Part shown: positions 29,456 to 43,951 of the stretch, in pieces
Numbering within the stretch: position 1 is the first letter of the stretch
How the letters are laid out: each line of letters starts with the position of its first letter
Source of the DNA: a virus
Taxonomy: Duplodnaviria > Caudoviricetes
DNA: 64,000 bases
Virus record (IMG/VR): IMGVR_UViG_3300029288_000168
Location: 5,394 to 69,393 of that record
Strand: one strand, 5' to 3'
Notes under the pieces: model-generated
The model's input: the letters and a program-made list of their open reading frames with translations, nothing else
Databases searched by the model: none
Told to the model about the DNA's origin: nothing
Program-made: the position numbers and the translations under genes

Positions 29456-29485
29456 TTGACAAAATGGCATTTTGGATGGTATACT
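29456..29485 (+). promoter_or_regulatory. sigma70-type promoter
   Basis: TTGACA-18-TATACT. Confidence 0.7.
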
Positions 29486-29491: not shown

Positions 29492-30025
29492 ATGGGCAAC
29501 AAACGTAAAAGGGCTATTGATCTTTGGAATTCTGGTTGTTTTACCATGCAACAAATTGGTAAACAATTGGGCTTGAGTAGGGAACGCATTAGACAATTTG
29601 TTGAAGATGCTATAAGGAGCAACCAAGCAGTTTTGTCTGCAAAAGAGTGGCAGTTGCATAGGAAAGTTGTAAGGGAGGCTTCAATAGATTGTGTGCGTAC
29701 ATCTAAACTTTGGGATATGCCACTATATACTACTGTTAGTAGAAATGGGTGGGTTAAGGTAAGGTTAAAGAGAATAATTAATAGATGGCGGTGTGAGAAA
29801 TGTGGGTGGCATAAATATCCTATAGCTTTGGTGATCCACCACATCGACAAAAACAGGAGAAACAACGATCCTAATAATTTAATGTTATTATGTCCTAATT
29901 GTCATTGGTTTATACATCAAATGTCTAAAGATTTTAGTATGACATCAAAGGGTCGGAAGAGACAAACGGGTAGTAATTATACGGAACATTTATATAAGAA
30001 GCGACACGCAATTAGAAGTATTTAA
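29492..30025 (+). CDS. HTH (sigma r4-like) plus HNH endonuclease, probably leaderless
   Basis: TMQQIGKQLGLSRERIRQ; CEKCG..IHHIDKNRRNN..NLMLLCPNCH; ATG 7 nt after the -10. Confidence 0.8.
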   Translation: MGNKRKRAIDLWNSGCFTMQQIGKQLGLSRERIRQFVEDAIRSNQAVLSAKEWQLHRKVVREASIDCVRTSKLWDMPLYTTVSRNGWVKVRLKRIINRWRCEKCGWHKYPIALVIHHIDKNRRNNDPNNLMLLCPNCHWFIHQMSKDFSMTSKGRKRQTGSNYTEHLYKKRHAIRSI

Positions 30026-30034
30026 CAAATGTGG

Positions 30035-30043
30035 TGATATAAT
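30035..30043 (+). promoter_or_regulatory. Extended -10 promoter for the tRNA island
   Basis: TG-A-TATAAT, no clear -35. Confidence 0.5.
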
Positions 30044-30289
30044 GTATAGTGATGACAAAGGCGGTCCAATATGAAACCGACTACAGGTGGTTAGATGAGA
30101 ACTGATGAACTTGAGGAAATGCGGTAATGGAAAATATTAAGAATGTTTGAGCAAAAAGATGAGAGTTGAAGAGGAAAAAGGCGCAAGGTAAATAAAGGAG
30201 TAGTACGATGTTTAGGTTATGGCAGGATAGGATGTTGCATTCGTCTGGACAGGGTCAACGCCCCGTCGAGGACGGGTGTAAGTACCCGT

Positions 30290-30417: not shown

Positions 30418-30492
30418 GGGGCTGTGGTCTAATGGGAGGACAAGGGTTTTTCAAGCCCTTAGCGAGGGTTCGATTTCCCTCCAGCCCTACCA
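30418..30492 (+). tRNA. tRNA-Glu(TTC)
   Basis: Cloverleaf, loop TTTTCAA, CCA. Confidence 0.92.
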
Positions 30493-30493
30493 T

Positions 30494-30567
30494 GGCGCAT
30501 TCGTCTAAAGGCAGGATAGATGGTTCTCAACCATTTGACACCGGGTCAGTACCGGTATGCGCTACCA
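30494..30567 (+). tRNA. tRNA-Glu(CTC), atypical T-loop GTCAGTA
   Basis: Cloverleaf, CCA. Confidence 0.88.
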
Positions 30568-30576
30568 AATTGAGAG

Positions 30577-31329
30577 GTGACATTGAAATGTATTAATTGT
30601 AATACTGATTTAATAGGTACTCAAACTAAATTCTGCAATAAGAAGTGTAAAGATAATTATTACCATAAACGGGATTTGGTCGATGTAAAATGTACTTGTT
30701 GTGGTAGTATGTTTAAACGCAGAAGGCAGAGATTGGGTATATATCGTAGTTTGTGTAGACATTGTAGTTCTAGGCAGAATGCATTAGATTATATGGCATA
30801 TAAATCTGGTAAAGATAGTCCAAAATGGAGGGGCGGGTACAAGTATTGGATGTCTGGGAGGTACGGCAAGGATAAAGATGGGTTATCTTGGAAGATACAA
30901 CGCAGGCTAGCACGTGAACGTGATGGGTACTTATGTCAGAAATGCGGATGTTGTGAGATAAATAAAAAAGTTAGTGTGCATCATAAAGTACCATACAGAA
31001 TTTCGTTTTCGCATGCTTTAGATAATTTGATATGTTTGTGTAAACGGTGCCACCCCAGAGATGAGTCTCAAATTAAAGAGTTGTGGGGAGGTAAGACGTT
31101 AGCTCCACCTATGAGAGGTTTACCTAAACCACGTTGTAGTATATGTAGCAAAAAGAGAAAGCTTATTGGTGGGATTTGTACAACTTGTATTAGAATTAAA
31201 AACATAACCACAGCTAGGTTGTTATTGAATGAGGGGCTGAGTTATGTTGAGGTTGGTAGGATGCTTAACAAGGATAGGCGGGTTGTTTGGAGTTGGGTCA
31301 ATATTTGTAAAGACGGTGTGGTGCAGTGA
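30577..31329 (+). CDS. HNH homing endonuclease with zinc fingers
   Basis: CQKCG..VHHKVPY..SHALDNLICLCKRCH; 3' end overlaps tRNA-Asp. Confidence 0.85.
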   Translation: MTLKCINCNTDLIGTQTKFCNKKCKDNYYHKRDLVDVKCTCCGSMFKRRRQRLGIYRSLCRHCSSRQNALDYMAYKSGKDSPKWRGGYKYWMSGRYGKDKDGLSWKIQRRLARERDGYLCQKCGCCEINKKVSVHHKVPYRISFSHALDNLICLCKRCHPRDESQIKELWGGKTLAPPMRGLPKPRCSICSKKRKLIGGICTTCIRIKNITTARLLLNEGLSYVEVGRMLNKDRRVVWSWVNICKDGVVQ

Positions 31330-31386
31330 ATAGCATACGAGCTTGTCACGCTTGAGACGCGAGTCTGATTCTCGCCATCGTCGCCA
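31312..31386 (+). tRNA. tRNA-Asp(GTC)
   Basis: GACGGTG/CATCGTC acceptor, loop TTGTCAC, GCCA. Confidence 0.9.
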
Positions 31387-31389
31387 AAT

Positions 31390-31399
31390 TGTTCTTTAA
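31390..31399 (+). promoter_or_regulatory. boxA-like element
   Basis: TGTTCTTTAA before the RNase P RNA. Confidence 0.6.
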
Positions 31400-31694
31400 T
31401 TAAGTTAACGAAGTAGTTGCGGGCCGTTTTACCAGTAAAAAGAAGATTTGGTGGTGTCATCTTCTTTTCGGTCTGAGGAAAGTCCGAGCTCCGCAGAGCA
31501 ACGTAGCAACTAACGGTTGCCCGCCGTGAGGCGAGGATTAGAGGACAGAGACGAGCCACTTAAGTGTGGGTGAGACGACCAATCTCTACGTGGAGCAAGT
31601 TCATATAGGAACCTAGCTGGCTCGGTTGATAGGTTCGGGTAGAACGCTTAGACGGATGACTACATAAACAAAACTCGGCTTATTGTTAACTTGA
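31400..31694 (+). ncRNA. rnpB: RNase P RNA, compact form
   Basis: GAGGAAAGTCC and ACAAAACTCGGCTTA P4 strands; P1 TTAAGTTAAC/GTTAACTTGA; P2, P3, P8, P9 and P15 GGTA identifiable; no apparent P13/14/18. Confidence 0.93.
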
Positions 31695-31775
31695 AAATTA
31701 AAGGGAATTCAGAAACGGCTTTGATGTAGGATCTTGTGAAGAAAACCGCTGATAACGACACTGATAGCCCTACGT

Positions 31776-31869
31776 GGAAGTGAGGTGCATAGTGGTTAGG
31801 CACGCTTGTTTGCTAAACAGGTGAGGATTAAACCCCCCTCTGCTGGTTCGACCCCAGTCACTTCCGCCA
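31776..31869 (+). tRNA. tRNA-Ser(GCT)
   Basis: Long variable arm, GCCA. Confidence 0.9.
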
Positions 31870-31873
31870 TTTT

Positions 31874-31962
31874 GGAGAGTAGCCAGATATGGTTGGCTGG
31901 GACGGCTTGGAATACCGTTTGGGATAAAACCCATGCTGATTCGAATTCAGCACTCTCCGCCA
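31874..31962 (+). tRNA. tRNA-Ser(GGA)
   Basis: Long variable arm, GCCA. Confidence 0.88.
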
Positions 31963-31967
31963 GTATT

Positions 31968-32055
31968 GGAGGATCTGGGCATATTGGTGAGCCCAACCGC
32001 CTCGAAAGCGGTAGCCGTAACAGGCTTGGTTGTTCAACTCAACCATCCTCCGCCA
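31968..32055 (+). tRNA. tRNA-Ser(CGA)
   Basis: Long variable arm, GCCA. Confidence 0.9.
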
Positions 32056-32058
32056 TTT

Positions 32059-32140
32059 GATGCTATAAGATAGGCGTTGTCCGACGGGCATAATGCGACC
32101 TATTGACCAGTCATTGACGAATATAAATCTGGCTAGCATC
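32059..32140 (+). ncRNA. 82-nt three-way-junction RNA candidate
   Basis: GATGCTA/TAGCATC closes ATAGG..CCTAT and CCAG..CTGG arms; not a cloverleaf. Confidence 0.5.
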
Positions 32141-32142
32141 TT

Positions 32143-32229
32143 GGAAGCGCTGAGCAGTGGCTGAGCTCACCCGTCTTGAACACGGGAGCTGTAAAAGGCT
32201 TAGAGGATCGTCGCCTCTCGCTTCCGCCA
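32143..32229 (+). tRNA. tRNA-Ser(TGA), atypical T-loop
   Basis: Long variable arm, GCCA. Confidence 0.88.
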
Positions 32230-32231
32230 TT

Positions 32232-32241
32232 TGTTCTTTAA
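32232..32241 (+). promoter_or_regulatory. boxA-like element
   Basis: TGTTCTTTAA. Confidence 0.6.
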
Positions 32242-32244
32242 TGT

Positions 32245-32318
32245 GGGAGTGAAGTGTTAGGGCAGCATCGCGGTCTCCAAAACCGTTGGTCAAGGTTCAA
32301 ATCCTTGCACTCCTGCCA
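32245..32318 (+). tRNA. tRNA-Trp(CCA)
   Basis: Cloverleaf, GCCA. Confidence 0.92.
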
Positions 32319-32319
32319 A

Positions 32320-32395
32320 GGTGGGATCGCCTAGATGGTAAGGCATTCGTTTCATAAGCGAATTATCGCGGATTCGAGTTCCGCTCCCACTACCA
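32320..32395 (+). tRNA. tRNA-Met(CAT), elongator (Ile2 not excluded)
   Basis: Cloverleaf, loop TTCATAA. Confidence 0.85.
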
Positions 32396-32399
32396 ATTT

Positions 32400-32476
32400 T
32401 GCGGGTTAGACTGGAGGTGGTTCCAGCATAGGCTCATACCCTATTGACATTGGTTCGATTCCAATACCCGCTTCCA
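32400..32476 (+). tRNA. tRNA(CAT), initiator-like
   Basis: 1:72 mismatch, TGCGGGT acceptor, loop CTCATAC; only two G-C pairs in the anticodon stem. Confidence 0.75.
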
Positions 32477-32477
32477 A

Positions 32478-32556
32478 GCGCAGGTACCCAAGTGGTCGAA
32501 GGGGACGGTCTGCAAAACCGTTATTACCGTCGGTTCAAATCCGACCCTGCGCTCCA
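32478..32556 (+). tRNA. tRNA-Cys(GCA)
   Basis: Cloverleaf, U73. Confidence 0.92.
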
Positions 32557-32563
32557 GATTTAT

Positions 32564-32575
32564 TGTTCTTTGTGA
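32564..32575 (+). promoter_or_regulatory. boxA-like element
   Basis: TGTTCTTTGTGA. Confidence 0.55.
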
Positions 32576-32578
32576 TTT

Positions 32579-32655
32579 GCGTTCGTGCGCCGAAATGGAT
32601 AGGCAATCGGCTTTTAACCGATACTATGAGAGTTCAAGCCTCTCCGAACGCACCA
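32579..32655 (+). tRNA. tRNA-Lys(TTT)
   Basis: Cloverleaf, ACCA. Confidence 0.92.
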
Positions 32656-32659
32656 ATAA

Positions 32660-32755
32660 AAGCTGAGATGTAGGTTCAACCCCTCGCAGGGGCAGTTCCT
32701 GCGTATACTAGGCTGTCACGGCAGCCTATAGTTTAATGGTAAAACGCAGCTTGTG
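32660..32755 (+). ncRNA. Circularly permuted tRNA-like RNA (YrlA-like topology) with an insertion in the T-arm
   Basis: Order: AGCTG, T-loop GTAGG-TTCAACC-CCT, hairpin, closed acceptor TAGGCTG-TCACGG-CAGCCTA, TA, D-arm GTTT-AATGGTA-AAAC, CAGCT. Confidence 0.65.
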
Positions 32756-32765
32756 TATAATTATT

Positions 32766-32840
32766 GGGTGTGTAGCAAAATGATAATGCATCTCCCTCTT
32801 AAGGAGAAGAATGAAGGTTAGAGTCCTTCCACACCCACCA
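32766..32840 (+). tRNA. tRNA-Lys(CTT)
   Basis: Cloverleaf, ACCA. Confidence 0.92.
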
Positions 32841-32855
32841 TTTTACAGGAGACAA

Positions 32856-33581
32856 ATGATACATAAACATAAAGTTAATGATAAGTTCTTTGACAAATGG
32901 TCTGCAGATATGGCATATGTTTTAGGATACTTTTTTGGTGATGGTTGTATTTACAAAAATAAGGGCGGGTCTAAACGAGTCATATTTTGTGGTCATCAAG
33001 ATGATGAGGAGTTTCTTAAGAAGTTGGCTAGTATAATAGGGTGTAGTGCTTTGGTATCTCAAAGTAAACGATCTAAATGTTGTAGGTTTGAATTTGTTAG
33101 TGCTAGGATGTTTGATAGGTTATATAGTTTGGGTAAGAGGAAGAGACTTGTTTGTCCTAAGGTACCCAGGGAGTTTATTAGAGATTTTGTAAGGGGATAT
33201 ATTGATTCTGATGGATGTGTAGGATTTGTGAAGTCTGAATACTATAAGACTTTGAGTAGTGGCTATAAAAAATTATATTGTTATAATAAATTGGTGGTGC
33301 AAATGACAAGTAAGGATATTGGGTTTTTATGTAAATTAGAGAAATATATTAGAGGTTTGGGTTTTAAGAAAGCAAATATCCACGGCAATCAATATTTTAG
33401 TGTTTATTATTATAGATTGCATGCACAACGATTAGTAGATTTAATATATTATAAAAATTGTTTAGCTTTAACGAGAAAATTGTTGCAGGTTCGTCTAATT
33501 GGTAGGACGGTTGGTTTTGAGCCAAAAAATCGTGGTTCGAGTCCACGACCTGTAGCCAATGCGGTGTCGACTAATAGGTAG
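32856..33581 (+). CDS. LAGLIDADG homing endonuclease
   Basis: YVLGYFFGDG and FVRGYIDSDG; AGGAG SD gives start 32856; reads through tRNA-Gln(TTG). Confidence 0.88.
   Translation: MIHKHKVNDKFFDKWSADMAYVLGYFFGDGCIYKNKGGSKRVIFCGHQDDEEFLKKLASIIGCSALVSQSKRSKCCRFEFVSARMFDRLYSLGKRKRLVCPKVPREFIRDFVRGYIDSDGCVGFVKSEYYKTLSSGYKKLYCYNKLVVQMTSKDIGFLCKLEKYIRGLGFKKANIHGNQYFSVYYYRLHAQRLVDLIYYKNCLALTRKLLQVRLIGRTVGFEPKNRGSSPRPVANAVSTNR
33484..33558 (+). tRNA. tRNA-Gln(TTG)
   Basis: TGCAGGT/ACCTGTA acceptor, GCCA. Confidence 0.88.
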
Positions 33582-33634
33582 GTCAACTGACTCTGAATCA
33601 GTTAGTTGAGGTTCGAACCCTTACACCGCAACCA
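33560..33634 (+). tRNA. tRNA-Gln(CTG)
   Basis: Cloverleaf, ACCA. Confidence 0.9.
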
Positions 33635-33642
33635 AATTTCAT

Positions 33643-33720
33643 CTGCGTGTAGCTCAGTTTGTCCAGAGCGCTCGGCCAGGAACCGAGAGGTCAGTGGTTG
33701 AAATCCACTCATGCAGACCA
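33643..33720 (+). tRNA. tRNA-Pro(AGG), rare anticodon, C33
   Basis: C1-G72, A73; stem CTCGG/CCGAG, loop CCAGGAA. Confidence 0.85.
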
Positions 33721-33724
33721 TTTA

Positions 33725-33802
33725 CGGAGTGTCGGTCAATTTGGTAGACCACATGCCCTGGGAGCATGAATAGTGAGAGTTCAAGTCTCTCCACTCCGAC
33801 CA
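33725..33802 (+). tRNA. tRNA-Pro(TGG), C33
   Basis: CGGAGTG acceptor, loop CCTGGGA. Confidence 0.9.
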
Positions 33803-33816
33803 ATTTAGAGGTAGTA

Positions 33817-33960
33817 ATGAAGATAAGAAAGAAGTTGCAAAAAGAGATTGAGAGAAGGGGGAAGCTTTCAAGTTGGGAACAGTTTGAAATCGAGACTGCC
33901 GACCCAATGTTGTTTAAGGTTCAAAAAGAGGTACAAAGGAGTAGTAAATGCGGTGCTTAG
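33817..33960 (+). CDS. Small basic hypothetical protein
   Basis: GAGG SD; 47 aa. Confidence 0.45.
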   Translation: MKIRKKLQKEIERRGKLSSWEQFEIETADPMLFKVQKEVQRSSKCGA

Positions 33961-34451
33961 TTTTAAATGCAAGCCATGAGTTTCTTGGCGTCTGTGACTG
34001 GCAGTCGGCTGTTTGTGCTACTGTTACGGGCAAGGTAATAGTTATGGAGGAGTATGATAGGGTTATACACTCTGTATCTATGGAGATGAGGGTTCCGGCT
34101 GTTATAAAGCTTAAGAACTATGTTAAGGTTTCTTATGATAGGATATCCTACGTTTCCTACACCAAGCGCAACGTACATCTCCGTGATAACTACATATGTC
34201 AGTACTGTGGCGAGAAGACGGATTCTAAGCACATAGGCATTGACCATGTTTTACCAGAATCTCGTGGCGGTCAAGACACATGGGAAAATACAGTTTCAGC
34301 TTGCAACCCTTGCAACTTTGATAAGGACAACCGAACGCCTTGGGAAGCAGGTATGAAGCTGATAAGGACTCCCCATAAGCCTCGTGGTTTTAAGGAGATT
34401 ATAAGAATTAAGGTTGGTGAAATACATGATCTTTGGTTGAAGTATTTGTAA
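33948..34451 (+). CDS. McrA-type HNH nuclease
   Basis: LVLNAS, PAVIKL, RDNYICQYCG, IDHVLPESRGG, CNPCNFDK. Confidence 0.9.
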   Translation: MRCLVLNASHEFLGVCDWQSAVCATVTGKVIVMEEYDRVIHSVSMEMRVPAVIKLKNYVKVSYDRISYVSYTKRNVHLRDNYICQYCGEKTDSKHIGIDHVLPESRGGQDTWENTVSACNPCNFDKDNRTPWEAGMKLIRTPHKPRGFKEIIRIKVGEIHDLWLKYL

Positions 34452-34459
34452 AATTTGAT

Positions 34460-34535
34460 GGCGGGTATAGTGTAATGGAAGCACAGGAGACTGTGGCTCT
34501 CCTAGAGCGGGTTCGATTTCCCGTTACTCGCCCCA
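34460..34535 (+). tRNA. tRNA-His(GTG) with encoded G-1
   Basis: 8-bp acceptor G-1:C73. Confidence 0.92.
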
Positions 34536-34541
34536 AATTTC

Positions 34542-34616
34542 GAGTCGCAGGTGTTAGTGACAGCACATCGGGCCGTAACCCCGTTGGTGAAGGTTTAAGT
34601 CCTTCGCGACTCACCA
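34542..34616 (+). tRNA. tRNA-Tyr(GTA), short variable loop, C33
   Basis: G1-C72, A73, loop CCGTAAC; lacks the usual bacterial long arm. Confidence 0.7.
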
Positions 34617-34618
34617 TT

Positions 34619-34630
34619 TGATCTTTGAAA
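34619..34630 (+). promoter_or_regulatory. boxA-like element
   Basis: TGATCTTTGAAA. Confidence 0.6.
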
Positions 34631-34632
34631 TT

Positions 34633-34706
34633 GGGGGCTTGGTATAGCGAGATTACTCCCGCCCTGCAAGCGGGCGACGGCGGTTTGATTCCGCCAGCCT
34701 CCACCA
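34633..34706 (+). tRNA. tRNA-Ala(TGC)
   Basis: G3:U70, loop CCTGCAA. Confidence 0.88.
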
Positions 34707-34711
34707 ATATA

Positions 34712-34839
34712 CGAGCAATAGTGTAATATCTTGTGAGAGTAGGTGTCGACTCCATGGTTAATAGTCAAGGCATTAGGGTAGCAGGACAGCATGATTAGCA
34801 GTGGCTGATAGGTTACGTGAAAATCGTATTGCTCGACCA
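34712..34839 (+). ncRNA. 128-nt acceptor-stem/ACCA RNA lacking a normal anticodon arm
   Basis: CGAGCAATA/TATTGCTCG followed by ACCA; T-like hairpin TACG-TGAAAAT-CGTA; internal hairpins. Confidence 0.55.
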
Positions 34840-34859
34840 ACAATTTAGGGGGGGGGGCA

Positions 34860-35711
34860 GTGTATAAATGTAAATATTGTGGTAAAGAGTTTGAAAAGTG
34901 CGGTAGTCTCGGTGCTCATGTCTTGTGTATGCATAACGTTGAGTTTAGAAGAAAGCAACGCTTACCTAGAAGGTTGCGTGAGGTTATAACTAGACAATGC
35001 GCAGTGTGCGGTTGTAAATTTTCGTATGAGAAAATTGTTGGTAGTAAGAAGGGCGACAGGAAGTGTTGTTCGGTATCATGTGCGGCAAGACGATATCCGA
35101 CGAATGTCAATGTGTGTTTGTGTTGTGGGAAAAATATAGATAGACATCTTAAGTTTTGTAGTTTAAAATGTTGTTATGAATATAAGCGTCAGGAATATAT
35201 TAAAAAGTGGTTGAAAGGCGAAGTTAGTGGGAATACTAAGGATGACTTGTCTAATCATGTACGTAAGTATTTGTTTGAAATCAATAATAATAAATGTGAG
35301 AAGTGTGGTTGGAATGAAGTAAACAAACTTACTGGGCTGGTGCCATTAGAGATACATCATAAAGACGGCAATAGTGGAAATAGTAAAAGAGAAAATGTGG
35401 AGTTGTTATGCCCCAATTGTCATTCCCTTACGTTTAATTATGGTGGGCTTAATGTTGGCAATGGCAGAGAATGTCGCAGGCTGAGTAGGCAGGAACATAA
35501 GCTCGGTATAATACATATTAAAAGATCAATAAAGATAAAGAAAAATTGTCTATTGTGTAATAAAGAATTTTTTGTTTTCCCAAGCCGAAGTAAGAGGAAA
35601 TACTGTTCTCATAAGTGTGCTTTATCTTCCCCTAAAAGAGTATCATATACTACGTCGGGGATGGCGCTTCTTAGCTCTAGTAGTGATAACGTTAGCACAA
35701 CTGTCTTGTAA
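34860..35711 (+). CDS. HNH homing endonuclease with multiple zinc fingers
   Basis: CEKCG..LEIHHKDGNSGNSKRENVELLCPNCH; 3' end overlaps tRNA-Thr(TGT). Confidence 0.87.
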   Translation: MYKCKYCGKEFEKCGSLGAHVLCMHNVEFRRKQRLPRRLREVITRQCAVCGCKFSYEKIVGSKKGDRKCCSVSCAARRYPTNVNVCLCCGKNIDRHLKFCSLKCCYEYKRQEYIKKWLKGEVSGNTKDDLSNHVRKYLFEINNNKCEKCGWNEVNKLTGLVPLEIHHKDGNSGNSKRENVELLCPNCHSLTFNYGGLNVGNGRECRRLSRQEHKLGIIHIKRSIKIKKNCLLCNKEFFVFPSRSKRKYCSHKCALSSPKRVSYTTSGMALLSSSSDNVSTTVL

Positions 35712-35748
35712 ACAGTGAGTCGGAGTTAAATTCTCCGCTAGAGCTCCA
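35674..35748 (+). tRNA. tRNA-Thr(TGT)
   Basis: Cloverleaf, TCCA. Confidence 0.9.
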
Positions 35749-35753
35749 GATTT

Positions 35754-35828
35754 GCCCGTCTAGTGATAATGTTAGCACGTCTGTTTCGTAAGCAGAAAGT
35801 CAGAGTTAAATTCTCTGGATGGGCTCCA
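35754..35828 (+). tRNA. tRNA-Thr(CGT)
   Basis: Cloverleaf, TCCA. Confidence 0.9.
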
Positions 35829-35829
35829 A

Positions 35830-35903
35830 GCTCGTGTGGTTCAAAAGTAGAATGCGTCCTTGGTAAGGATGAGACGACAGAGCGTTACTGTCCACGAGCT
35901 CCA
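35830..35903 (+). tRNA. tRNA-Thr(GGT), atypical T-loop
   Basis: Cloverleaf, TCCA. Confidence 0.88.
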
Positions 35904-35909
35904 GATTTA

Positions 35910-35979
35910 CACGGTGTAGGATAAAGTAGTCTCTCCTGCGCGCAGGAGGATTCAGCTTGACGAACTGACGCCGTGACCA
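35910..35979 (+). tRNA. Degenerate tRNA-like RNA with a self-complementary 6-nt anticodon loop
   Basis: CACGGTG/CGCCGTG acceptor plus ACCA; arm CTCCT-GCGCGC-AGGAG. Confidence 0.6.
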
Positions 35980-35980
35980 A

Positions 35981-36055
35981 GCGGGTGAAGTGTTTATGGT
36001 TACACCCCAGTCTTCCAAACTGGTATAGAGAGATCGTGACTCTCCACCCGCTCCA
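35981..36055 (+). tRNA. tRNA-Gly(TCC)
   Basis: GCG acceptor start, U73. Confidence 0.9.
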
Positions 36056-36060
36056 GATTT

Positions 36061-36135
36061 GCCGCAATAGCTTAATTGGTGAAAGCGACCGCCTGAAGAG
36101 CGGAAGATTCGGCTCGATACCCGATTGCGGCACCA
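36061..36135 (+). tRNA. tRNA-Phe(GAA)
   Basis: Cloverleaf, ACCA. Confidence 0.9.
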
Positions 36136-36139
36136 ATAT

Positions 36140-36222
36140 TCCGAGGTTGGGTAATGGTATCCCAGCGGACTGTTAATCCGTCGCCGTAAGGCATGCAGGT
36201 TCGACTCCTGCTCTCGGAGCCA
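36140..36222 (+). tRNA. tRNA-Asn(GTT) with a long variable arm
   Basis: TCC start, G73; extra arm GCC-GTAA-GGC. Confidence 0.88.
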
Positions 36223-36227
36223 ATTTT

Positions 36228-36303
36228 GCCCGCATAGCCTAGCGGCTAAGGCGACTGGTCTACACCCAGTGCATCGGTGGTTCGAGTCCATCTGCGGGTA
36301 CCA
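36228..36303 (+). tRNA. tRNA-Val(TAC), C33
   Basis: Loop TCTACAC, ACCA. Confidence 0.88.
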
Positions 36304-36307
36304 TTTT

Positions 36308-36399
36308 CGGCGGTTAGTTCAATGGTAGAACAGCGGTCTTATAAGCCGTAAGCATCCGATTAATGCGTAATCGAGGTTCAAGTCCTCGACCGCCGACCA
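36308..36399 (+). tRNA. tRNA-Ile(TAT) with a long variable arm
   Basis: Loop CTTATAA; extra arm GCAT-CCGATTA-ATGC. Confidence 0.85.
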
Positions 36400-36404
36400 A
36401 TTTA

Positions 36405-36481
36405 CCACGTGTGGCTGAGGTAGATATAGCGCCATCCTGATAAGGTGGAGAACGTCAGCGCAAATCTGACCGCGTGGACCA
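36405..36481 (+). tRNA. tRNA-Ile(GAT)
   Basis: Cloverleaf, T-loop CGCAAAT. Confidence 0.9.
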
Positions 36482-36483
36482 AT

Positions 36484-36495
36484 TGCTCTTTGTAA
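36484..36495 (+). promoter_or_regulatory. boxA-like element
   Basis: TGCTCTTTGTAA, closest to the E. coli rrn boxA. Confidence 0.65.
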
Positions 36496-36498
36496 TTT

Positions 36499-36575
36499 AC
36501 CCCTGTCGTCCAATTGAATAAGACATCTGGCTACGAACCAGAAGATTGAAGGTTTGAGTCCTTTCAGGGGTACCA
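36499..36575 (+). tRNA. tRNA-Arg(ACG)
   Basis: Cloverleaf, ACCA. Confidence 0.92.
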
Positions 36576-36578
36576 ATT

Positions 36579-36673
36579 CTTGCAGTCCTGTTGAAAGATA
36601 GGGTGGGCTGGATAACCTTTATTAGTAGAAGATGGGGGCATTTGAGGTATGCTAAAAACTCTACTACTGCAAG
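36579..36673 (+). ncRNA. 95-nt multibranch RNA candidate
   Basis: CTTGCAGT/ACTGCAAG, CCTGT/ATAGG, AGTAGA/TCTACT, GCAT/ATGC helices. Confidence 0.5.
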
Positions 36674-36677
36674 TTTC

Positions 36678-36751
36678 GCGCCTATAGTGTAATGGAAGCA
36701 TTACTTCGTCCTAAGGAGTGGGTGACAGTTCAAATCTGTCTTGGCGCACCA
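36678..36751 (+). tRNA. tRNA-Arg(CCT)
   Basis: Loop GTCCTAA, ACCA. Confidence 0.85.
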
Positions 36752-36761
36752 TTTATTAATA

Positions 36762-36815
36762 GGTTGGCATTGAGGGCGTGCCTTAAGAGTATGAATAACT
36801 CAGCCCTCTCCAGCT
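36762..36815 (+). ncRNA. 54-nt bulged stem-loop abutting tRNA-Arg(CCG)
   Basis: GGTTGG/CCAGCT, AGGGC/GCCCT, GAGT/ACTC. Confidence 0.4.
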
Positions 36816-36888
36816 GCCTGTAGTGTATCGGATCGCACATAACCCTCCGAAGGTTATAGAGTAGGTTCAATTCCTGCCAGGCAGACCA
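36814..36888 (+). tRNA. tRNA-Arg(CCG)
   Basis: Cloverleaf, ACCA. Confidence 0.9.
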
Positions 36889-36896
36889 AATTTAAT

Positions 36897-36972
36897 GTGC
36901 TCGTCACCCAATGGAAAGGGCAATCGTCTTCTAAACGGTTAAGTGCGGGTTCGACTCCCGCCGAGCACTCCA
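36897..36972 (+). tRNA. tRNA-Arg(TCT)
   Basis: Cloverleaf, CCA. Confidence 0.92.
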
Positions 36973-36977
36973 TATGT

Positions 36978-37060
36978 GCGTGAGTGGCGGAATGGCAGAC
37001 GCGCTGCTTTGAGGTGGCAGTGGTAATACCGTAGGGGTTCGACTCCCCTCTCGCGCACCA
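36978..37060 (+). tRNA. tRNA-Leu(GAG)
   Basis: Class II, A73. Confidence 0.92.
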
Positions 37061-37068
37061 ATATGCAA

Positions 37069-37152
37069 GCGAGCGTGGTGGAATGGCAGACACGGCAGCC
37101 TCAAAAGCTGTTGGGTAAAACCGTGAAGGTTCAAATCCTTTCGCTCGCACCA
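37069..37152 (+). tRNA. tRNA-Leu(CAA)
   Basis: Class II, A73. Confidence 0.92.
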
Positions 37153-37156
37153 TTTT

Positions 37157-37240
37157 GTCAGAGTGGTGGAATGGCAGACACAACAGACTTAAAATCTGTC
37201 GGGTAAAACCGTGAGGGTTCAACTCCCTTCTCTGACACCA
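37157..37240 (+). tRNA. tRNA-Leu(TAA)
   Basis: Class II, A73. Confidence 0.92.
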
Positions 37241-37246
37241 ATTAAT

Positions 37247-37329
37247 GCCCGGGTGGTGGAATGCAGACACGTTAGCCTTAGGAGCTAATGCCGTAAGGCG
37301 TGAGAGTTCAAATCTCTTCCTGGGTACCA
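37247..37329 (+). tRNA. tRNA-Leu(TAG)
   Basis: Class II, A73. Confidence 0.92.
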
Positions 37330-37359: not shown

Positions 37360-37389
37360 TTGACAATACAGTGTTTGTTGTGGTATAAT
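37360..37389 (+). promoter_or_regulatory. sigma70-type promoter for the Y-like RNA array and TerD-domain gene
   Basis: TTGACA-18-TATAAT, with TGTGG. Confidence 0.8.
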
Positions 37390-37422
37390 GTGTCCATACT
37401 AACACTGTGGAGGAATTAGTAA

Positions 37423-37487
37423 GGCATAGGAAGTTCCTATTAAAACCAAGCGCCCCACAAGGGCGCTTACTAGAAATACTTCCCGCT
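37423..37487 (+). ncRNA. Y-RNA-like unit 1 (simple hairpin payload)
   Basis: GGCATA-GGAAGT-TCCTATTAAAA..AAGCGCCC/GGGCGCTT..GAAAT-ACTTCC-CGCT. Confidence 0.7.
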
Positions 37488-37498
37488 TTACGAATTAG

Positions 37499-37546
37499 GG
37501 CATAGGGAGTTCCTATTAAAATTCAAATGGCGAAAATACTCCCCGC
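37499..37546 (+). ncRNA. Y-RNA-like unit 2 (10-nt loop payload)
   Basis: GGCATA-GGGAGT-TCCTATTAAAA..GAAAT-ACTCCC-CGCC. Confidence 0.7.
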
Positions 37547-37561
37547 CCACGAATTAATTGA

Positions 37562-37672
37562 GGCATAAGAGGTTCCTATTAAAATCTGGAACCGAAAGAG
37601 TCAGTTCGATTCTGACCTAGACTTGCGGGTCTAGTAGTGTAATGGCAGCACGTCGGTATAATACCTCTCGCC
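37562..37672 (+). ncRNA. Y-RNA-like unit 3 with a permuted tRNA mimic (YrlA-like)
   Basis: GGCATA-AGAGGT-TCCTATTAAAA; ACCGA/TCGGT; T-arm GTCAG-TTCGATT-CTGAC; closed acceptor CTAGACT-TGCG-GGTCTAG; D-arm; ATAAT-ACCTCT-CGCC. Confidence 0.82.
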
Positions 37673-37696
37673 TTTAAAAACTAAGGAGGTGTCGAG

Positions 37697-39592
37697 ATGG
37701 AAGCAACAATTAGGTTGTTTAGAGCCCTGCCTATTACTAAAACAAGTAAAAAGTATGACAAAACCCTGATGGCGAATACCATCAAAAAGGGGTTTGTTTT
37801 CTCCCCTGCAGTTATAGCCAATTATTCCTACGGAGAGTTGTGCCGACTAGCTGATGTTGTTGAGGATGCTGTTGGTTTGTCTGCAGATAAGATGAACAAT
37901 GCCTTTCATAAATCATGGAAGAAAATAAAGACTGCAGATATAGAACAGTTGGTTTTGGAACAGCTTGTTCACTATATAACTACCTACGGATATGAGAGGT
38001 TAGGTATTTATGATAAGGACACTGTTTACATTCCTCAGGAAGAATTGAAAATACCTAAGACGGATGTTAAAGGCATACCTCTTGTAGTAATTAGAGGGTA
38101 TACAAAAAAGGTGCTTAAAGATAAAATAATAGACTTGCTTCAGTCTGGAGTTGCCCTTAAGGAAGATACTAAGAGGGATGTTATAGATGTTGCTACCTTT
38201 GTTGGGTTTGATGAAACTGAGGTTTCTAATATAAAGAACAAAGAAGTTCGCGTAGCGCTATATGACTACTTAGGGATGTTTCCAGAAAACCCTATTGAGT
38301 TTTTGCGGTTTGCTATATATAAGTCTATTAACAAAACTTTGTTGATCAAAAATGGGTTTACCATCCACGAGATAAAAACCAAAGATAACTTGGCTGTTCT
38401 TGGGTTGTTGAACAAGTACGATGCCAAATTCGGGTTGGAAAGGTTAGCGGAGGTTTTCTATCGGTTCAAACCTTTGTTCTTGGCGTTTAGAACCAACAAG
38501 AAACTTAAGGTAATTATAAATAGGATAGGCAAACTTGCTAAGACTCACCACAAGCCTATGAAGGAAGACTATCTTAATACAGTTACATCCATGATTTCAA
38601 ACGGCAAGACTATAAAGAAAGATGTGCTGGTAGACGCATTGAACCAATCCAACATCTTTAGGAAAATAAGGCTGGCGTATGCTTTGAAATTTAGGACGTC
38701 GGATGCTGAGTCAATCTTATATAGAATAAGAAACGGCAAGAGCTATGCAACCAGCTTCCAATTTGATAACCATAAGGAAGCTAAAGGGGCGTTGGAGGTT
38801 GTACTTAGATCAATAGTTAAGGACATAGAACCTAAAGTTAAGGGTAAGAAAATATTTATACCGTCTGGGGTTCAGTATGCACTACCTGCAACGGAAAAGC
38901 AGTTTACTGGCAACTTACCGTCTGGTACCAGTATATCAGTGTCAAAAGATATGGTTTTTGGTGTGCACTGGGAAGATGTTGGCAATACTAGGATTGATTT
39001 GGACTTGTCATTACTTGGTTCAGATGGTTGCAAAACTGGTTGGGATGCAAATTACAGGTCTGGCGATCGTAAGATCCTGTTCTCTGGCGATATGACGGCT
39101 GCGCCTAAGCCTAATGGTGCATCAGAACTGTTTTATGTAGCAAGGCAGACGGAGGCGTCTCTTATATTGTTTGTTAACTATTTTAACCACGATGAAGACG
39201 TAGAGGTTCCTTTTAAAATATTGGTTGCTGAGGAGCCTGTAAAGAACCTTAGTAAGAACTACATGGTTAACCCTAACAATGTAGTTGGTGTTGTTGCGAC
39301 TAAGATTAAAGAAAGGCAAAGGATGTTAGGGTTGGTAACTGTATCGCCAAATGAATGTAAGTTTTATTTTGCTGAGGCTGATATAGGAAATTCGATAACA
39401 TCTTATGGTAATAAGTACTCAGATGATGCTAGGAGGTACTTGTTTGACTTCTATAAGAATGCTATTACATTAAACGAGGTTTTGGATATGGCTGGAGCTA
39501 AGCTTGTGTCTAAAAAGGATAAGTGCGATGTAGACTTGTCCTTGGAAGGGTTGGAGAAGGATACAATTCTTTCATTGATAAGGAAGTCGTAA
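37697..39592 (+). CDS. Large helical protein with a C-terminal TerD-like domain
   Basis: FGVHW..IDLDLS..GW..LFSGDMTAAP..GASE..FVNYF; long alpha-helical N-terminal region; AAGGAGG SD. Confidence 0.7.
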   Translation: MEATIRLFRALPITKTSKKYDKTLMANTIKKGFVFSPAVIANYSYGELCRLADVVEDAVGLSADKMNNAFHKSWKKIKTADIEQLVLEQLVHYITTYGYERLGIYDKDTVYIPQEELKIPKTDVKGIPLVVIRGYTKKVLKDKIIDLLQSGVALKEDTKRDVIDVATFVGFDETEVSNIKNKEVRVALYDYLGMFPENPIEFLRFAIYKSINKTLLIKNGFTIHEIKTKDNLAVLGLLNKYDAKFGLERLAEVFYRFKPLFLAFRTNKKLKVIINRIGKLAKTHHKPMKEDYLNTVTSMISNGKTIKKDVLVDALNQSNIFRKIRLAYALKFRTSDAESILYRIRNGKSYATSFQFDNHKEAKGALEVVLRSIVKDIEPKVKGKKIFIPSGVQYALPATEKQFTGNLPSGTSISVSKDMVFGVHWEDVGNTRIDLDLSLLGSDGCKTGWDANYRSGDRKILFSGDMTAAPKPNGASELFYVARQTEASLILFVNYFNHDEDVEVPFKILVAEEPVKNLSKNYMVNPNNVVGVVATKIKERQRMLGLVTVSPNECKFYFAEADIGNSITSYGNKYSDDARRYLFDFYKNAITLNEVLDMAGAKLVSKKDKCDVDLSLEGLEKDTILSLIRKS

Positions 39593-39598
39593 TGTTTT

Positions 39599-39652
39599 GT
39601 GGCGTTGCCTGGGTGTGGCTCTCCCCGCTACTGTGGGTCTTGGCAACGCCAC
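39599..39652 (+). other. GC-rich stem-loop after the TerD-domain gene
   Basis: 11-bp GTGGCGTTGCC/GGCAACGCCAC; no U-tract after it. Confidence 0.5.
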
Positions 39653-39670
39653 TTCGATATCTAAATATAC

Positions 39671-39700
39671 TTGACAAACCTATAGTTAATGTGGTATAAT
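39671..39700 (+). promoter_or_regulatory. sigma70-type promoter
   Basis: TTGACA-18-TATAAT. Confidence 0.8.
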
Positions 39701-39725
39701 GGTTGTATAACAAGGAGATGACGAG

Positions 39726-40739
39726 ATGGCAGAAATAAAAGATGGTGAGATAGTTGAGGTGCAAGGTTCGGCAGCAACCCCGTATCAAGTTAAGCGCATT
39801 GGTGATGTAATATCGTGCTCGTGTCCCGCGTGGCGCAATCAGTCCCTTCCTATTAATAAAAGGACATGCAAACATATCCGTAAAGTGAGGGGTGATGAGG
39901 CAGAATCTGCTCGTATAGGCGGGTCTCTAACTATGCGCGCCCCTAAAACTAAGGAAGGTGGTAAGGTGCAAGCAGTACCGCCGGCGCTCTTACTTGCTAA
40001 CAAGTGGACTCCCGACATCGATCCCAATGGCTGGTGGATGTCCGAAAAGCTTGATGGCATCCGTGCCTATTGGACGGGCAAAGAGCTCATTTCGCGCTTG
40101 GGCAACAAGCTCTATGCGCCGGAGTGGTTTACCAAGGACTTGGGTGAAGACCCCCTCGATGGCGAGCTTTGGCTTGGTCGTAAGAAATTTCAGGAGACGA
40201 TGTCCATTGTACGGTCGCAAGGTCTCGATGAGGAGTGGAGACCTATTAAGTACCTCATCTTCGATATGCCGGGGCTTACAATAGCGGAATTTGAGGAAAG
40301 GCGCAAATTCATGGCGCATGCAAAGTTGCCCGATCACTGCGTAATAGTTGAGCAGATGCCTTGTAATGGTGTTGATCACCTTAAAGCTACCTTGAAGGCG
40401 CTTGAGGAGAAGGGTGCTGAGGGCGTGATGCTCCGTAAACCGCACTCGCGCTATGAGGGGAGGCGTTCTCCTACGCTCCTTAAGGTAAAGAGCTTCTATG
40501 ATGATGAGGCGACAATAATCGGATACGAGCCCGGTAAGGGTAGGCACAAAGGTAGGCTTGGAGGTTACGTTTGTGTTTTGGCAAATGGGGTAAGGTTTTC
40601 TGTTGGATCTGGGCTGACAGACAAAGAAAGGAACAGCCCATTGAAGATTAATACGAAGATTACATTTCGCTATTGCGAACTGACAGATACAGGGGTGCCT
40701 AGATTTCCTACGTATGTTGGTGAATGCTTGGATAAATAG
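39726..40739 (+). CDS. lig: ATP-dependent DNA ligase with N-terminal SWIM finger
   Basis: CSCPAW..TCKH; SEKLDGIRAYW; LDGELW; EGVMLRK; LLKVK; PRFP. Confidence 0.92.
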   Translation: MAEIKDGEIVEVQGSAATPYQVKRIGDVISCSCPAWRNQSLPINKRTCKHIRKVRGDEAESARIGGSLTMRAPKTKEGGKVQAVPPALLLANKWTPDIDPNGWWMSEKLDGIRAYWTGKELISRLGNKLYAPEWFTKDLGEDPLDGELWLGRKKFQETMSIVRSQGLDEEWRPIKYLIFDMPGLTIAEFEERRKFMAHAKLPDHCVIVEQMPCNGVDHLKATLKALEEKGAEGVMLRKPHSRYEGRRSPTLLKVKSFYDDEATIIGYEPGKGRHKGRLGGYVCVLANGVRFSVGSGLTDKERNSPLKINTKITFRYCELTDTGVPRFPTYVGECLDK

Positions 40740-40750
40740 ATGCATTTTAC

Positions 40751-40780
40751 TTGACAAGGCATACATCGATGTGTTATAAT
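40751..40780 (+). promoter_or_regulatory. sigma70-type promoter
   Basis: TTGACA-18-TATAAT. Confidence 0.8.
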
Positions 40781-40792
40781 AATTATAAGACT

Positions 40793-40903
40793 GGGAGTCT
40801 TGTATGTATAAATCAAGTAAACAATTAAGAGGTAATGAGGCACGCCAAGTGCAGTCTGTCTCCGGCTGTCTTAAGTCGGCAGGACTCCTACTCGTTACCT
40901 CTG
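40793..40903 (+). ncRNA. Pseudoknotted 5' leader of the HNH gene
   Basis: 40793-802 pairs 40880-889; 40828-839 pairs 40892-903 (crossing); two inner hairpins. Confidence 0.6.
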
Positions 40904-40921
40904 TTCTATGCAGGGACTAAT

Positions 40922-41683
40922 ATGCCAACAACTGTGCAAGTTTGTAGAATATGCAAGGTAGGAAAGCCTACTACAGAGTTTTATAAACGGACAAATAAGA
41001 CTGGACATAGAACTGAGTGTAAGGATTGTAGGAGAAAATACGGAAAGTTATATAGGCTGGAACATAAAGCAGAAATTGCCAATGCAAAAAAGATGCAGGC
41101 GCAGTTGCACCCAGAGAAAGTTAGAGCTAGGAGAGAACGATATAAGCGAGCGCACCCAGATAGGGTAAGAGCTACTCAGAAACGGTATGCGCAGGTTCAC
41201 CCAGAGAATGGTCGGTTTAGGCAGAAGCGGTACCGTAAAGCGCACCCAGATAGAGTGGCTGCTAAAAATAAACGTTGGACGGAAGGTAATTTAGAACATA
41301 TAATTGCTTATCGGAAGCGGTACCGTCAGACGGAAGTGTATAAATTATCAGCCAGGGTAAATTCGCACAACCAAAAGACAAAGCGAGCAATTGTTGGTCA
41401 TTTAAGTTTGGGAACAGTGCAACAAGTTTATGAAGACAACATTAAGAAATATGGGACGCTTACTTGTGAATTGTGTTTTGATGTAATAGTGTTTGGCAAC
41501 GATTCGATTGAACATAGTATACCAATAGTAAGAGGCGGTACGCACGAGCGTTCTAACTTAGGCGTGGCTCATTTGCCGTGCAATTTATTTAAGGGTAGGA
41601 TGACGCTTGATGAATGGTTTGTATTACATTCAGAATATAAAGAAAGGAGGGGGAGTTATAATGGCAAAGGCAAAGGTTTTTAA
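40922..41683 (+). CDS. HNH endonuclease
   Basis: CRIC..CKDC N-terminus; CELC..SIEHSIPIVRGGTHERSNLGVAHLPCNLFKG; start moved to ATG 40922. Confidence 0.82.
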   Translation: MPTTVQVCRICKVGKPTTEFYKRTNKTGHRTECKDCRRKYGKLYRLEHKAEIANAKKMQAQLHPEKVRARRERYKRAHPDRVRATQKRYAQVHPENGRFRQKRYRKAHPDRVAAKNKRWTEGNLEHIIAYRKRYRQTEVYKLSARVNSHNQKTKRAIVGHLSLGTVQQVYEDNIKKYGTLTCELCFDVIVFGNDSIEHSIPIVRGGTHERSNLGVAHLPCNLFKGRMTLDEWFVLHSEYKERRGSYNGKGKGF

Positions 41684-42775: not shown

Positions 42776-42792
42776 TTTAATATAGGTTATAT

Positions 42793-43938: not shown

Positions 43939-43951
43939 TAAAGGAGTTTAA

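Follow-up and report, generated by a model that had tools for sequence, protein, structure and literature searches.

A compact type A RNase P RNA gene within the tRNA array of a tailed phage

Results

An RNase P RNA gene among phage tRNA genes

The IMG/VR virus record IMGVR_UViG_3300029288_000168 derives from a tailed phage and is a linear fragment of 69,393 bases without terminal repeats. The stretch analyzed here (the window, 64,000 nucleotides) comprises bases 5394-69393 of that record, and all positions below are those of the window. It carries an array of 37 tRNA genes and, embedded in the array on the same strand, a 293-nucleotide (nt) gene that matches the Rfam model of bacterial type A RNase P RNA (RNaseP_bact_a, RF00010). 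RNase P RNA ordinarily counts as a housekeeping ribozyme of cells. The gene begins 14 nt past the CCA of tRNA-Asp, and tRNA-Ser(GCU) starts 82 nt past the 3' strand of its helix P1 (Table 1).

The RF00010 match (Rfam cmscan) covers positions 31401-31697 of the + strand with a score of 148.8 bits and an E value of 6.5e-46, the gathering score of the model being 100 bits, and the whole record gave the same result. The alignment spans model positions 1-367 of 367 without truncation, and RF00010 is the top-scoring model of clan CL00002 on the stretch that the RNA occupies. An initial annotation made from the sequence alone had placed a compact RNase P RNA at 31390-31694 and had suggested comparison with bacterial and archaeal covariance models. 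The identification holds from one end of the RNA to the other, with RF00010 above its threshold and the archaeal model not the best in the clan, but the 5' coordinate was 11 nt too far out.

Secondary structure of the RNA

The full secondary structure was derived from the Rfam alignment of this RNA and each pair was checked. All 89 modeled pairs are canonical (Watson-Crick or G-U). The layout is that of type A: P15, P16, and P17 are modeled, P6 is a possible pairing, and P5.1, P10.1, and P15.1 are absent. The five conserved regions (CR-I to CR-V) are all intact, reading GAGGAAAGUCC, ACAGAGACGAG, GGGUGAGACG, AGACGGAU, and ACAAAACUCGGCUUA, and lie in invariant columns of the 12-sequence alignment described below, CR-I at columns G75-G86. 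We take these regions to be defined by GAGGAAAGUCC, the AG-rich joint J11/12, the GUGA joint, AGnnnnAU, and ACAnAAnnnGGCUUA, respectively. Both strands of P4, already recognized in the initial annotation, are present and form 8 base pairs (bp; 31480-31482 plus 31484-31488 with 31674-31681) from which U31483 is bulged.

Several of the retained elements have known roles in the bacterial enzyme. The bulged U of P4 holds catalytic metal ions, the GGU of L15 pairs with the 3' RCC of the tRNA, and the P9-P11 region touches the tRNA T loop (PMC10731613). The CAA of J5/15 is also retained; in E. coli, A248 of this joint reads U(-1) (PMC10731613).

P3 carries a 32-nt insertion relative to the RF00010 model, a feature absent from the initial annotation. 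The inserted helix pairs 31438-31447 with 31459-31468 around an 11-nt loop, and long P3 insertions likewise occur in cellular relatives (L048, L052, and G007). The struts formed by P13/P14 and P18, which are typical though not universal in the RF00010 family, are missing from this RNA: the 45 model positions of P13/P14 are represented by 3 nt and the 24 positions of P18 by none. Their absence had been noted from the sequence, as had the very short P12, which is a 4-bp stub in the modeled structure. Bacterial RNase P RNAs without P13, P14, and P18 are not uncommon and loss of P12 is highly unusual (PMC8172020). Hence, the absence of P13, P14, and P18 does not exclude membership in RF00010.

Covariation and selection on the fold

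Covariation was counted on a MAFFT alignment of 12 RNAs, namely this RNA and 11 relatives, both cellular and from other phages. A search via the DnaB-like protein gave no close phage relatives for phage-level covariation and the gp32-like protein gave distant fragments only, and covariation was therefore counted against cellular and other phage RNAs. In the alignment 86.8% of the cells pair, versus 72.0 ± 0.8% with shuffled partners (500 shuffles), and none of the 500 shuffles matched any of five covariation measures. When the partners were slid by 1-3 columns, pairing fell to 36-41%. More than half of the pairs (52 of 89) vary on both sides. Covariation is strong in P1, P2, P7, P8, P9, and P15, with two-sided changes in 9 of 11 pairs of P1, 6 of 6 of P2, and 5 of 5 in P7 and P8. 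Within P4, the pair A31487-U31675 is a compensated change from G-C to A-U that is common to 4 of the 11 aligned relatives.

Relative to the nearest cellular RNA, on metagenome contig L047 (MG_L047), the phage RNA has two-sided changes in 19 pairs and one-sided changes in 6, and pairing is kept in all of them. Identity between the two is 77% in unpaired columns and 60% in paired columns, a pattern characteristic of structural RNAs that are under purifying selection. With 19 compensated pairs relative to its nearest cellular relative, the fold is under selection and is not that of a decaying relic; the comparison argues strongly that the RNA is neither a relic nor a recent accident. Many of the pair changes relative to L047 are from G-C to A-U, and the G+C fraction of the RNA (0.47) is intermediate between those of its cellular relatives (0.51-0.57) and of the phage (~0.41). 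These changes indicate that the RNA has resided for a long time in the A+T-richer phage genome while its fold was kept.

Relatives and origin of the RNA

A blastn search of the RNA against 50,697 GenBank phage records gave no match, and no near-identical RNA was found in IMG/VR contigs, where the subfamily DNA pattern matched only L007. This locus is cut off at its end, and a search of the whole record gave a full RF00010 match (L032). A P4-motif scan of IMG/VR returned 27 loci, 18 with RF00010 matches. About ten RF00010 loci lie inside tRNA arrays of contigs of up to 497 kb (L003/L024, L004, which is the same place as L033, L006, L008/L014/L031, L011, L018, L025, and L026). None of these other phage copies is close to the RNA described here. 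To our knowledge, standard phage annotation does not look for RNase P RNA genes. With about ten such contigs in a small sample, phage-borne RNase P RNAs are recurrent and the class is probably common.

The closest sequences are cellular. The best match is that to L047 (81% identity over 150 nt), followed by the Omnitrophota genomes G060, G007, G006, and G028, and three rare derived strings (AGAGG-ACAGAGACGAG, GUGAGACGACCAAUCUC, and ACAAAACUCGGCUUA) are common to this RNA, L047, L048, and G028. A signature composed of the P4 A-U variant plus CGAGGAUU was present in seven metagenome contigs of cellular appearance, in which the only nearby tRNA genes were those of tRNA-Met and tRNA-Val, about 1.4 kb upstream. 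When the same signature was scanned against one genome per species for 185,579 species, exactly two were found, both titled Candidatus Omnitrophota. The Omnitrophota are nano-sized, largely uncultured bacteria. Among the sampled genomes of this phylum, 55 of 61 have an RF00010 match, most at 150-235 bits, and most of their RNase P RNAs (among loci L056-L086, and L047-L053) also lack P13/P14. The minority with scores of 275-314 bits probably retain P13/P14.

In a maximum-likelihood tree, the RNA was grouped with the phage RNAs L032 and L033 (93/94), and this trio sits beside one Omnitrophota subclade with moderate support (81/85), L033 being on a long branch. The tree has no outgroup from other phyla and is not rooted; the assignment of origin rests on the signature scan and the similarity ranking. 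The L032 phage is not close kin, as only a 35%-identical uracil-DNA-glycosylase domain is common to it and the polymerase of the present phage. Accordingly, the apparent phage clade could have arisen by transfer from phage to phage or by parallel capture from related hosts, or it could be a long-branch artifact. Taken together, the tree, the signature scan, and the similarity ranking, of which the phylogeny had been suggested at the outset as a guide to the host, point to Candidatus Omnitrophota as host or donor lineage, and an Omnitrophota origin of the RNA is probable.

Two weak hints lead in the same direction. The landfill sequencing run that contains the phage also yielded part of an RNase P RNA identical to the G028 type. 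In addition, a 61-residue open reading frame (ORF) at 43953-44138 (MVKKDQFKGKPVISL...) has 72-74% DNA identity over 100-117 nt to Omnitrophota genomes G199, G213, G215, G235, and G040 and may be a gene shared by host and phage. When window positions 37400-57399 were compared with 401 Omnitrophota genomes, no long exact match of the spacer type appeared, only short matches at chance level and the conserved small ORF.

The reduced architecture has both inherited and phage-specific parts. Loss of P13/P14 as a reduction made in the phage was ruled out, since it is common to most sampled Omnitrophota RNAs; it was inherited along with the P4 A-U pair and the tendency to a long P3, all common to the cellular relatives. 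Specific to the phage copy are a clean excision of P18, a shorter P17 region, and the shortest P12 among the closest aligned relatives. At the P18 site, L047 reads GCUUGA-[hairpin]-CCAGAUAGAUG versus GCUUAGACGGAUG in the phage RNA. The segment from L15 to CR-V is 27 nt long here and at least 49 nt in 35 of the 36 other placed RNAs, the exception, VR_L011, being read as 0. Note that these anchor-based lengths were used for P13/P14 and P18 only, because 17 of 54 RNAs were not placed by the anchors and the P12 boundary of L047 was mis-set.

The tRNA array as substrate and transcription unit

Default ARAGORN found 34 of the 37 tRNAs and a relaxed threshold the other three, two of which Rfam had also called. 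The 3' CCA is encoded in all 37. In 23 of the 37 tRNAs the base at N(-1) is T, against a T content of 28% for the array, and 27 have G+1; U(-1)/G+1 is the preferred site of bacterial RNase P (PMC10731613). Most inter-tRNA spacers (22 of 36) are 1-8 nt long. Given such short spacers and the encoded CCA, one RNase P cut would split two tRNAs and leave the upstream 3' end nearly finished.

The claim that many of the phage tRNAs have non-canonical T-loops was confirmed: 12 of the 34 default ARAGORN tRNAs (14 of 37 with the extra three) depart from TTCRANN. In at least seven tRNAs (Lys-CUU, Pro-AGG, Tyr, Ala, Thr-UGU, Thr-CGU, and Arg-ACG), C56 is replaced and the D-loop GG is missing, such that the elbow pair G19-C56 seems to have been rewired in a coordinated way. 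The accompanying proposal, that the phage keeps its own copy because the specificity domain of the host RNA reads odd T-loops poorly, found no support. The elbow-reading joints ACAGAGACGAG and GUGAGACG plus ACCAAUCUCUAC are letter-identical to those of L047 and of Omnitrophota G028, and there is thus no sequence sign of re-specialization for odd T-loops. An explanation in terms of supply or capacity appears to fit better than T-loop specialization.

No promoter-like site and no + strand terminator-like site was found adjoining the RNase P RNA. Lacking a promoter and terminator of its own, the RNA would be co-transcribed with the tRNAs and released by processing of its neighbors. The promoter match at 29456-29485, the best one ahead of the array, is a candidate start of a polycistronic array transcript, and by its consensus match the one at 37360-37389 would open a new unit ahead of a 631-residue ORF.

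Several other features of the array were observed. tRNA-Ile(UAU) (36308-36399) is 92 nt long with a variable-region insertion of about 19 nt, and tRNA-Asn(GUU) (36140-36222) is 83 nt long; long variable arms are unexpected for Ile and Asn tRNAs. The homing-endonuclease ORFs at 30577-31329, 32811-33581, and 34860-35711 extend into the next tRNA gene, the first of these, an HNH ORF, ending 18 nt inside tRNA-Asp. The 110-nt spacer between two tRNA-Lys genes (32656-32765) has a stable fold (-36.6 kcal/mol) and was not called as a tRNA.

Phage context and environmental occurrence

Phage genes flank the RNA for 30 kb on each side, all on the same strand as the RNA. They include structural and modification genes (tail fiber, tailspike chaperone, and sugar modification) and replication genes (DnaB-like and other helicases, gp32-like, RecA/UvsX-like, ATP-dependent ligase, and ribonucleotide reductase). 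CheckV estimated the record to be about 37% complete, from which a full genome of roughly 190 kb is extrapolated. The family A DNA polymerase gene at 53450-57046 encodes a uracil-DNA-glycosylase domain at the N terminus and is split by a LAGLIDADG intein. In a related 135-kb phage contig, positions 4339-4542 (L030) give a weak match to HEARO RNA (37.9 bits; gathering score 83).

Landfill metagenomes from several studies (2018-2022) and a single groundwater metagenome contain the same DNA (95-100% of sampled words). Contigs of landfill run X6, a run that is not marked as a possible source of the record, bridge both junctions with 0 differences, one covering the HNH gene, tRNA-Asp, and the RNA (31000-31502) and another the RNA and tRNA-Ser (31473-31880). 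No variants inside the RNase P RNA were found across four sequencing runs. Run X15, which is probably DNA, covers only 31685-31924 and comes from a variant strain.

Protein partner

That no RnpA had been seen in the sequence agrees with a search of the 69-kb record for RnpA (PF00825), which gave nothing at E <= 10 in this approximately 37% complete record. PF00825 was likewise not found in five further phage records with an RNase P RNA, among them two rated 100% complete: a 168.6-kb genome that has terminal repeats and a record of 463 kb. RnpA is encoded in 37 of 41 Omnitrophota genomes. Since no RnpA accompanies the phage RNase P RNAs, the simplest reading is that an RNA descended from the host's own RNase P RNA would borrow the RnpA of the host.

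Table 1 Positions of the RNase P RNA, its structural elements, and the surrounding features in the window.
Feature	Position	Strand	Remarks
RNase P RNA gene	31401..31693	+	P1 5' strand to P1 3' strand; 293 nt
P1	31401-31411 / 31683-31693	+	11 bp
P2	31413-31418 / 31658-31663	+	modeled helix
P3, extended	31420-31475	+	7-bp base (31420-31426/31469-31475), 11-nt bulge, extra 10-bp A/U-rich helix
CR-I GAGGAAAGUCC and P4 5' strand	31475..31488	+	P4 strand 31480-31488; bulged U31483
P5	31489-31492 / 31592-31595	+	modeled helix
P6	GAGC 31496-31499 / GCUC 31620-31623	+	possible pseudoknot pairing
Specificity domain P7-P11 with P12 stub	31501..31591	+	L8 UAACG; L9 GUGA (GNRA-type); no P13/P14
J11/12 ACAGAGACGAG	31545-31555	+	elbow-reading joint
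P12 stub	31556-31569	+	4 bp, UUAA loop
GUGAGACG joint	31570-31577	+	elbow-reading joint, ACCAAUCUCUAC next
P15-P17	31599..31645	+	P15 = 31599-31602/31642-31645
L15 3' side GGGUA	31637-31641	+	includes GGU for pairing with tRNA 3' RCC
J15/2, GCUU then AGACGGAUG	from 31646	+	P18 expected between the two parts
P18 deletion site and CR-IV AGACGGAU	31646..31657	+	GCUU/AGAC junction between 31649 and 31650
CR-V ACAAAACUCGGCUUA	31668..31682	+	holds P4 3' strand 31674-31681
tRNA array	30418..37329	+	34 default ARAGORN tRNAs + 3 at relaxed threshold = 37; HNH and LAGLIDADG ORFs interspersed
tRNA-Glu(CUC)	30494-30567	+	relaxed ARAGORN; aberrant T-loop TCAGTAC
tRNA-Asp(GUC)	31312..31386	+	non-canonical T-loop TCTGATT
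tRNA-Ser(GCU)	31776..31869	+	starts 82 nt past the P1 3' strand
tRNA-Ser(GGA)	31874-31962	+	relaxed ARAGORN
tRNA-Thr(GGU)	35830-35903	+	relaxed ARAGORN; aberrant T-loop AGCGTTA
Sigma-70-like promoter	29456..29485	+	TTGACA-18-TATACT, 11/12 matches, with TG; consensus match only
Second upstream promoter match	30022-30050	+	consensus match only; upstream of array
Sigma-70 promoter	37360-37389	+	perfect TTGACA-18-TATAAT with TG; just past last tRNA

Discussion

These data make it likely that positions 31401-31693 encode a functional catalytic RNase P RNA subunit of bacterial type A that is of Omnitrophota-type ancestry and was further trimmed in the phage. The ancestor would have been an Omnitrophota-type RNA already without P13/P14, from which the phage lineage cleanly deleted P18 and in which P12 and P17 were shortened. 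The RNA would form part of one long transcript of the tRNA array, be released as its tRNA neighbors are matured by cleavage, and fold to a core of P1-P12 and P15-P17 with the P4 and P6 pseudoknots. The folded RNA would then bind host RnpA, and the holoenzyme would cleave the phage's 37 pre-tRNAs at their 5' leaders. Recognition would involve reading of the T-arm elbow by the P9-P11/J11-12 module and pairing of the encoded 3' RCCA with the GGU of L15, U(-1) being preferred. The likely benefit would be processing capacity for a burst of tRNAs, whatever befalls host rnpB transcription during infection. The proposal of the initial annotation that the phage matures its own tRNAs is favored by the conserved core and the 19 compensated pairs, by which the RNA looks functional, but the activity itself is predicted from sequence.

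Several points weigh against this interpretation. The minimum free energy of the RNA has a z-score of -1.0 versus 200 shuffles, and so folding energy does not set the RNA apart. The minimum free energy fold recovers several of the RNA's helices, and such a weak z-score is common for pseudoknotted RNAs, for which the measure is uninformative. The case therefore rests on the covariance-model score and the covariation, and the latter was counted on a MAFFT alignment and on a structure derived from this RNA's own sequence, which favors that structure somewhat and inflates the contrast with the shuffles to some degree. Loss of P18 and P13/P14 removes tertiary struts, and by analogy the RNA may depend heavily on protein: the archaeal type A architecture without these struts has very weak RNA-alone activity (PMC2615603). 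A phage RnpA or another protein partner could lie in the missing part of the record. Finally, two IMG/VR phages that carry the flanking 631-residue gene (58-63% identity) have no RF00010 match in 135-183 kb, and the RNA is thus an accessory trait, dispensable in at least some tRNA-carrying kin.

The RNA might be functional and yet have another role, as a decoy or sponge for RnpA, as a protein-independent ribozyme, or as a processor of other substrates such as tRNA-like structures or endonuclease mRNAs. Selection on the fold fits any function exerted at the RNA level, and no RnpA is encoded beside the phage RNAs; a sponge would starve host tRNA maturation or redirect the holoenzyme. Moreover, because the endonuclease ORFs overlap the tRNAs downstream of them, RNase P cutting of those tRNAs would also cut the endonuclease mRNAs, and bacterial RNase P cleaves some phage-related mRNAs and small RNAs (PMC10731613). 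However, all that catalysis and pre-tRNA recognition require is kept, namely the bulged U of P4, J5/15, the GGU of L15, and the J11/12 module, none of which a pure protein sponge needs. The 37 surrounding tRNAs, which encode CCA and are rich in U(-1), would moreover be ideal substrates of the canonical kind. We therefore consider another role rather unlikely. It is more improbable still that the gene is a decaying relic, a host rnpB captured by chance together with tRNA genes and now eroding. Such erosion would account for the missing peripheral helices, for an RF00010 score that is the lowest among the collected phage copies (148.8 versus 156-328 bits), and for the two phages that have the neighboring gene and lack the RNA. 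Against it, none of the 89 pairs is broken, 19 are doubly compensated, and the single-stranded core is more conserved than the helices. The P18 deletion is exact at the base of the helix (GCUU/AGAC) and spares CR-IV, the same architecture works in cellular organisms (PMC8172020, PMC2615603), and the identical sequence persisted in landfill and groundwater metagenomes from 2018-2022.

A further explanation is that the phage does not encode the RNA at all, the contig being host chromosome, the flank of a provirus, or an assembly chimera in which phage DNA is joined to a bacterial rnpB. The record is a linear fragment without terminal repeats and only 37% complete, and the nearest relatives of the RNA are cellular. 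Yet same-strand phage genes extend 30 kb each way, the gene lies 14 nt from a tRNA in an array of 37, its G+C has drifted toward that of the phage, and its identity to the closest cellular RNA is only 81% over 150 nt. The cellular gene neighborhood is also different, and contigs of the other landfill run cross both junctions without a difference. Given the phage flanks, the tRNA array, and the bridging contigs, a host chromosome or chimeric join is very unlikely, and we hold this explanation to be the least probable of all. The original placement of the gene inside a phage tRNA array and not on a host chromosome therefore stands.

Beyond a functional RNA of trimmed Omnitrophota type lies a bolder reading, which we regard as possible but do not favor: tailed phages with large tRNA arrays may own an RNase P ribozyme lineage that frees their tRNA supply from host rnpB expression or from host counter-measures. 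In its boldest form, the trimmed RNA would be tuned to the phage's own pre-tRNAs, whose elbows are non-canonical in a third of cases, and would need only host RnpA or no protein. If this were true, the ancestry of the RNA would name Omnitrophota as the host of a phage of ~190 kb. We know of no characterized Omnitrophota phages, although no literature search was directed at this point.

In our full-text literature search, neither an RNase P RNA encoded by a phage or other virus nor any work on RNase P in Omnitrophota came to light. Since loss of P13/P14/P18 is known in working cellular RNAs, the architecture is a viable one; the ribozyme family and its reduced architecture were already known, and what is new is the setting of the gene in a phage. 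The finding extends the translation functions owned by phages (tRNAs, synthetases, and modification enzymes) to tRNA processing and brings a ribozyme into the pool of viral genes. It also provides a natural, selection-tested minimal type A design (no P13/P14/P18 and a stub P12) that should be useful for asking which struts are needed. It raises the question of whether RNase P capacity becomes limiting with dozens of phage tRNAs or whether host RNase P is a target of shut-off or defense. The RNA may further serve as a host marker, its signatures pointing to Candidatus Omnitrophota.

Comparison with known systems

The phage RNA resembles bacterial class A RNase P RNAs (E. coli M1/rnpB and Thermotoga maritima) in having CR-I to CR-V, P1-P5, P7-P12, P15-P17, and the P4/P6 pseudoknots, together with the bulged U in P4, the GGU of L15, and a GNRA L9, and CCA-encoding, U(-1)-rich tRNAs adjoin it. 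Unlike a typical class A RNA, it is encoded by a phage within a tRNA array, apparently without a promoter, terminator, or rnpA of its own, and its 293 nt lack P13/P14/P18 and include a 4-bp P12 and a doubled P3. With archaeal type A RNAs such as that of Methanothermobacter thermautotrophicus it has in common the absence of P13/P14 and P18, which leaves the L8-P4 contact and possibly an L9-P1 contact between the domains (PMC2615603). Archaeal RNase P RNAs are partnered by four or five proteins, and none of these is expected here. The 11-bp P1 of the phage RNA is long enough to receive L9. The phage RNA is also bacterial in sequence and keeps the GGU of L15 and P6, P16, and P17, and by these features its resemblance to the archaeal type is one of convergence, not of membership.

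The other phage copies (L003, L006, L011, L014/L031, L018, L025, L026, L032, and L033) likewise lie between tRNA genes of large phage contigs, and P13/P14 are also missing from L006, L031, L032, and L033, but among the collected copies the present RNA is the only one in which P18 is deleted. The closest likeness is to the Omnitrophota RNAs (metagenome-assembled genomes JAPLMG01 and JAUYDB01 and 53 others sampled) and to L047 and L048, with which it has in common the P4 A-U pair, CGAGGAUUAGAGG-ACAGAGACGAG, GUGAGACGACCAAUCUC, and ACAAAACUCGGCUUA. The Omnitrophota and other cellular RNAs range from 291 to 504 nt, the 291-nt RNA of G050 not having been placed by the anchors. Those cellular RNAs that were aligned or placed differ from the phage RNA in that they keep P18, have a longer P12 and P17, are richer in G+C, and lie in a cellular gene neighborhood.

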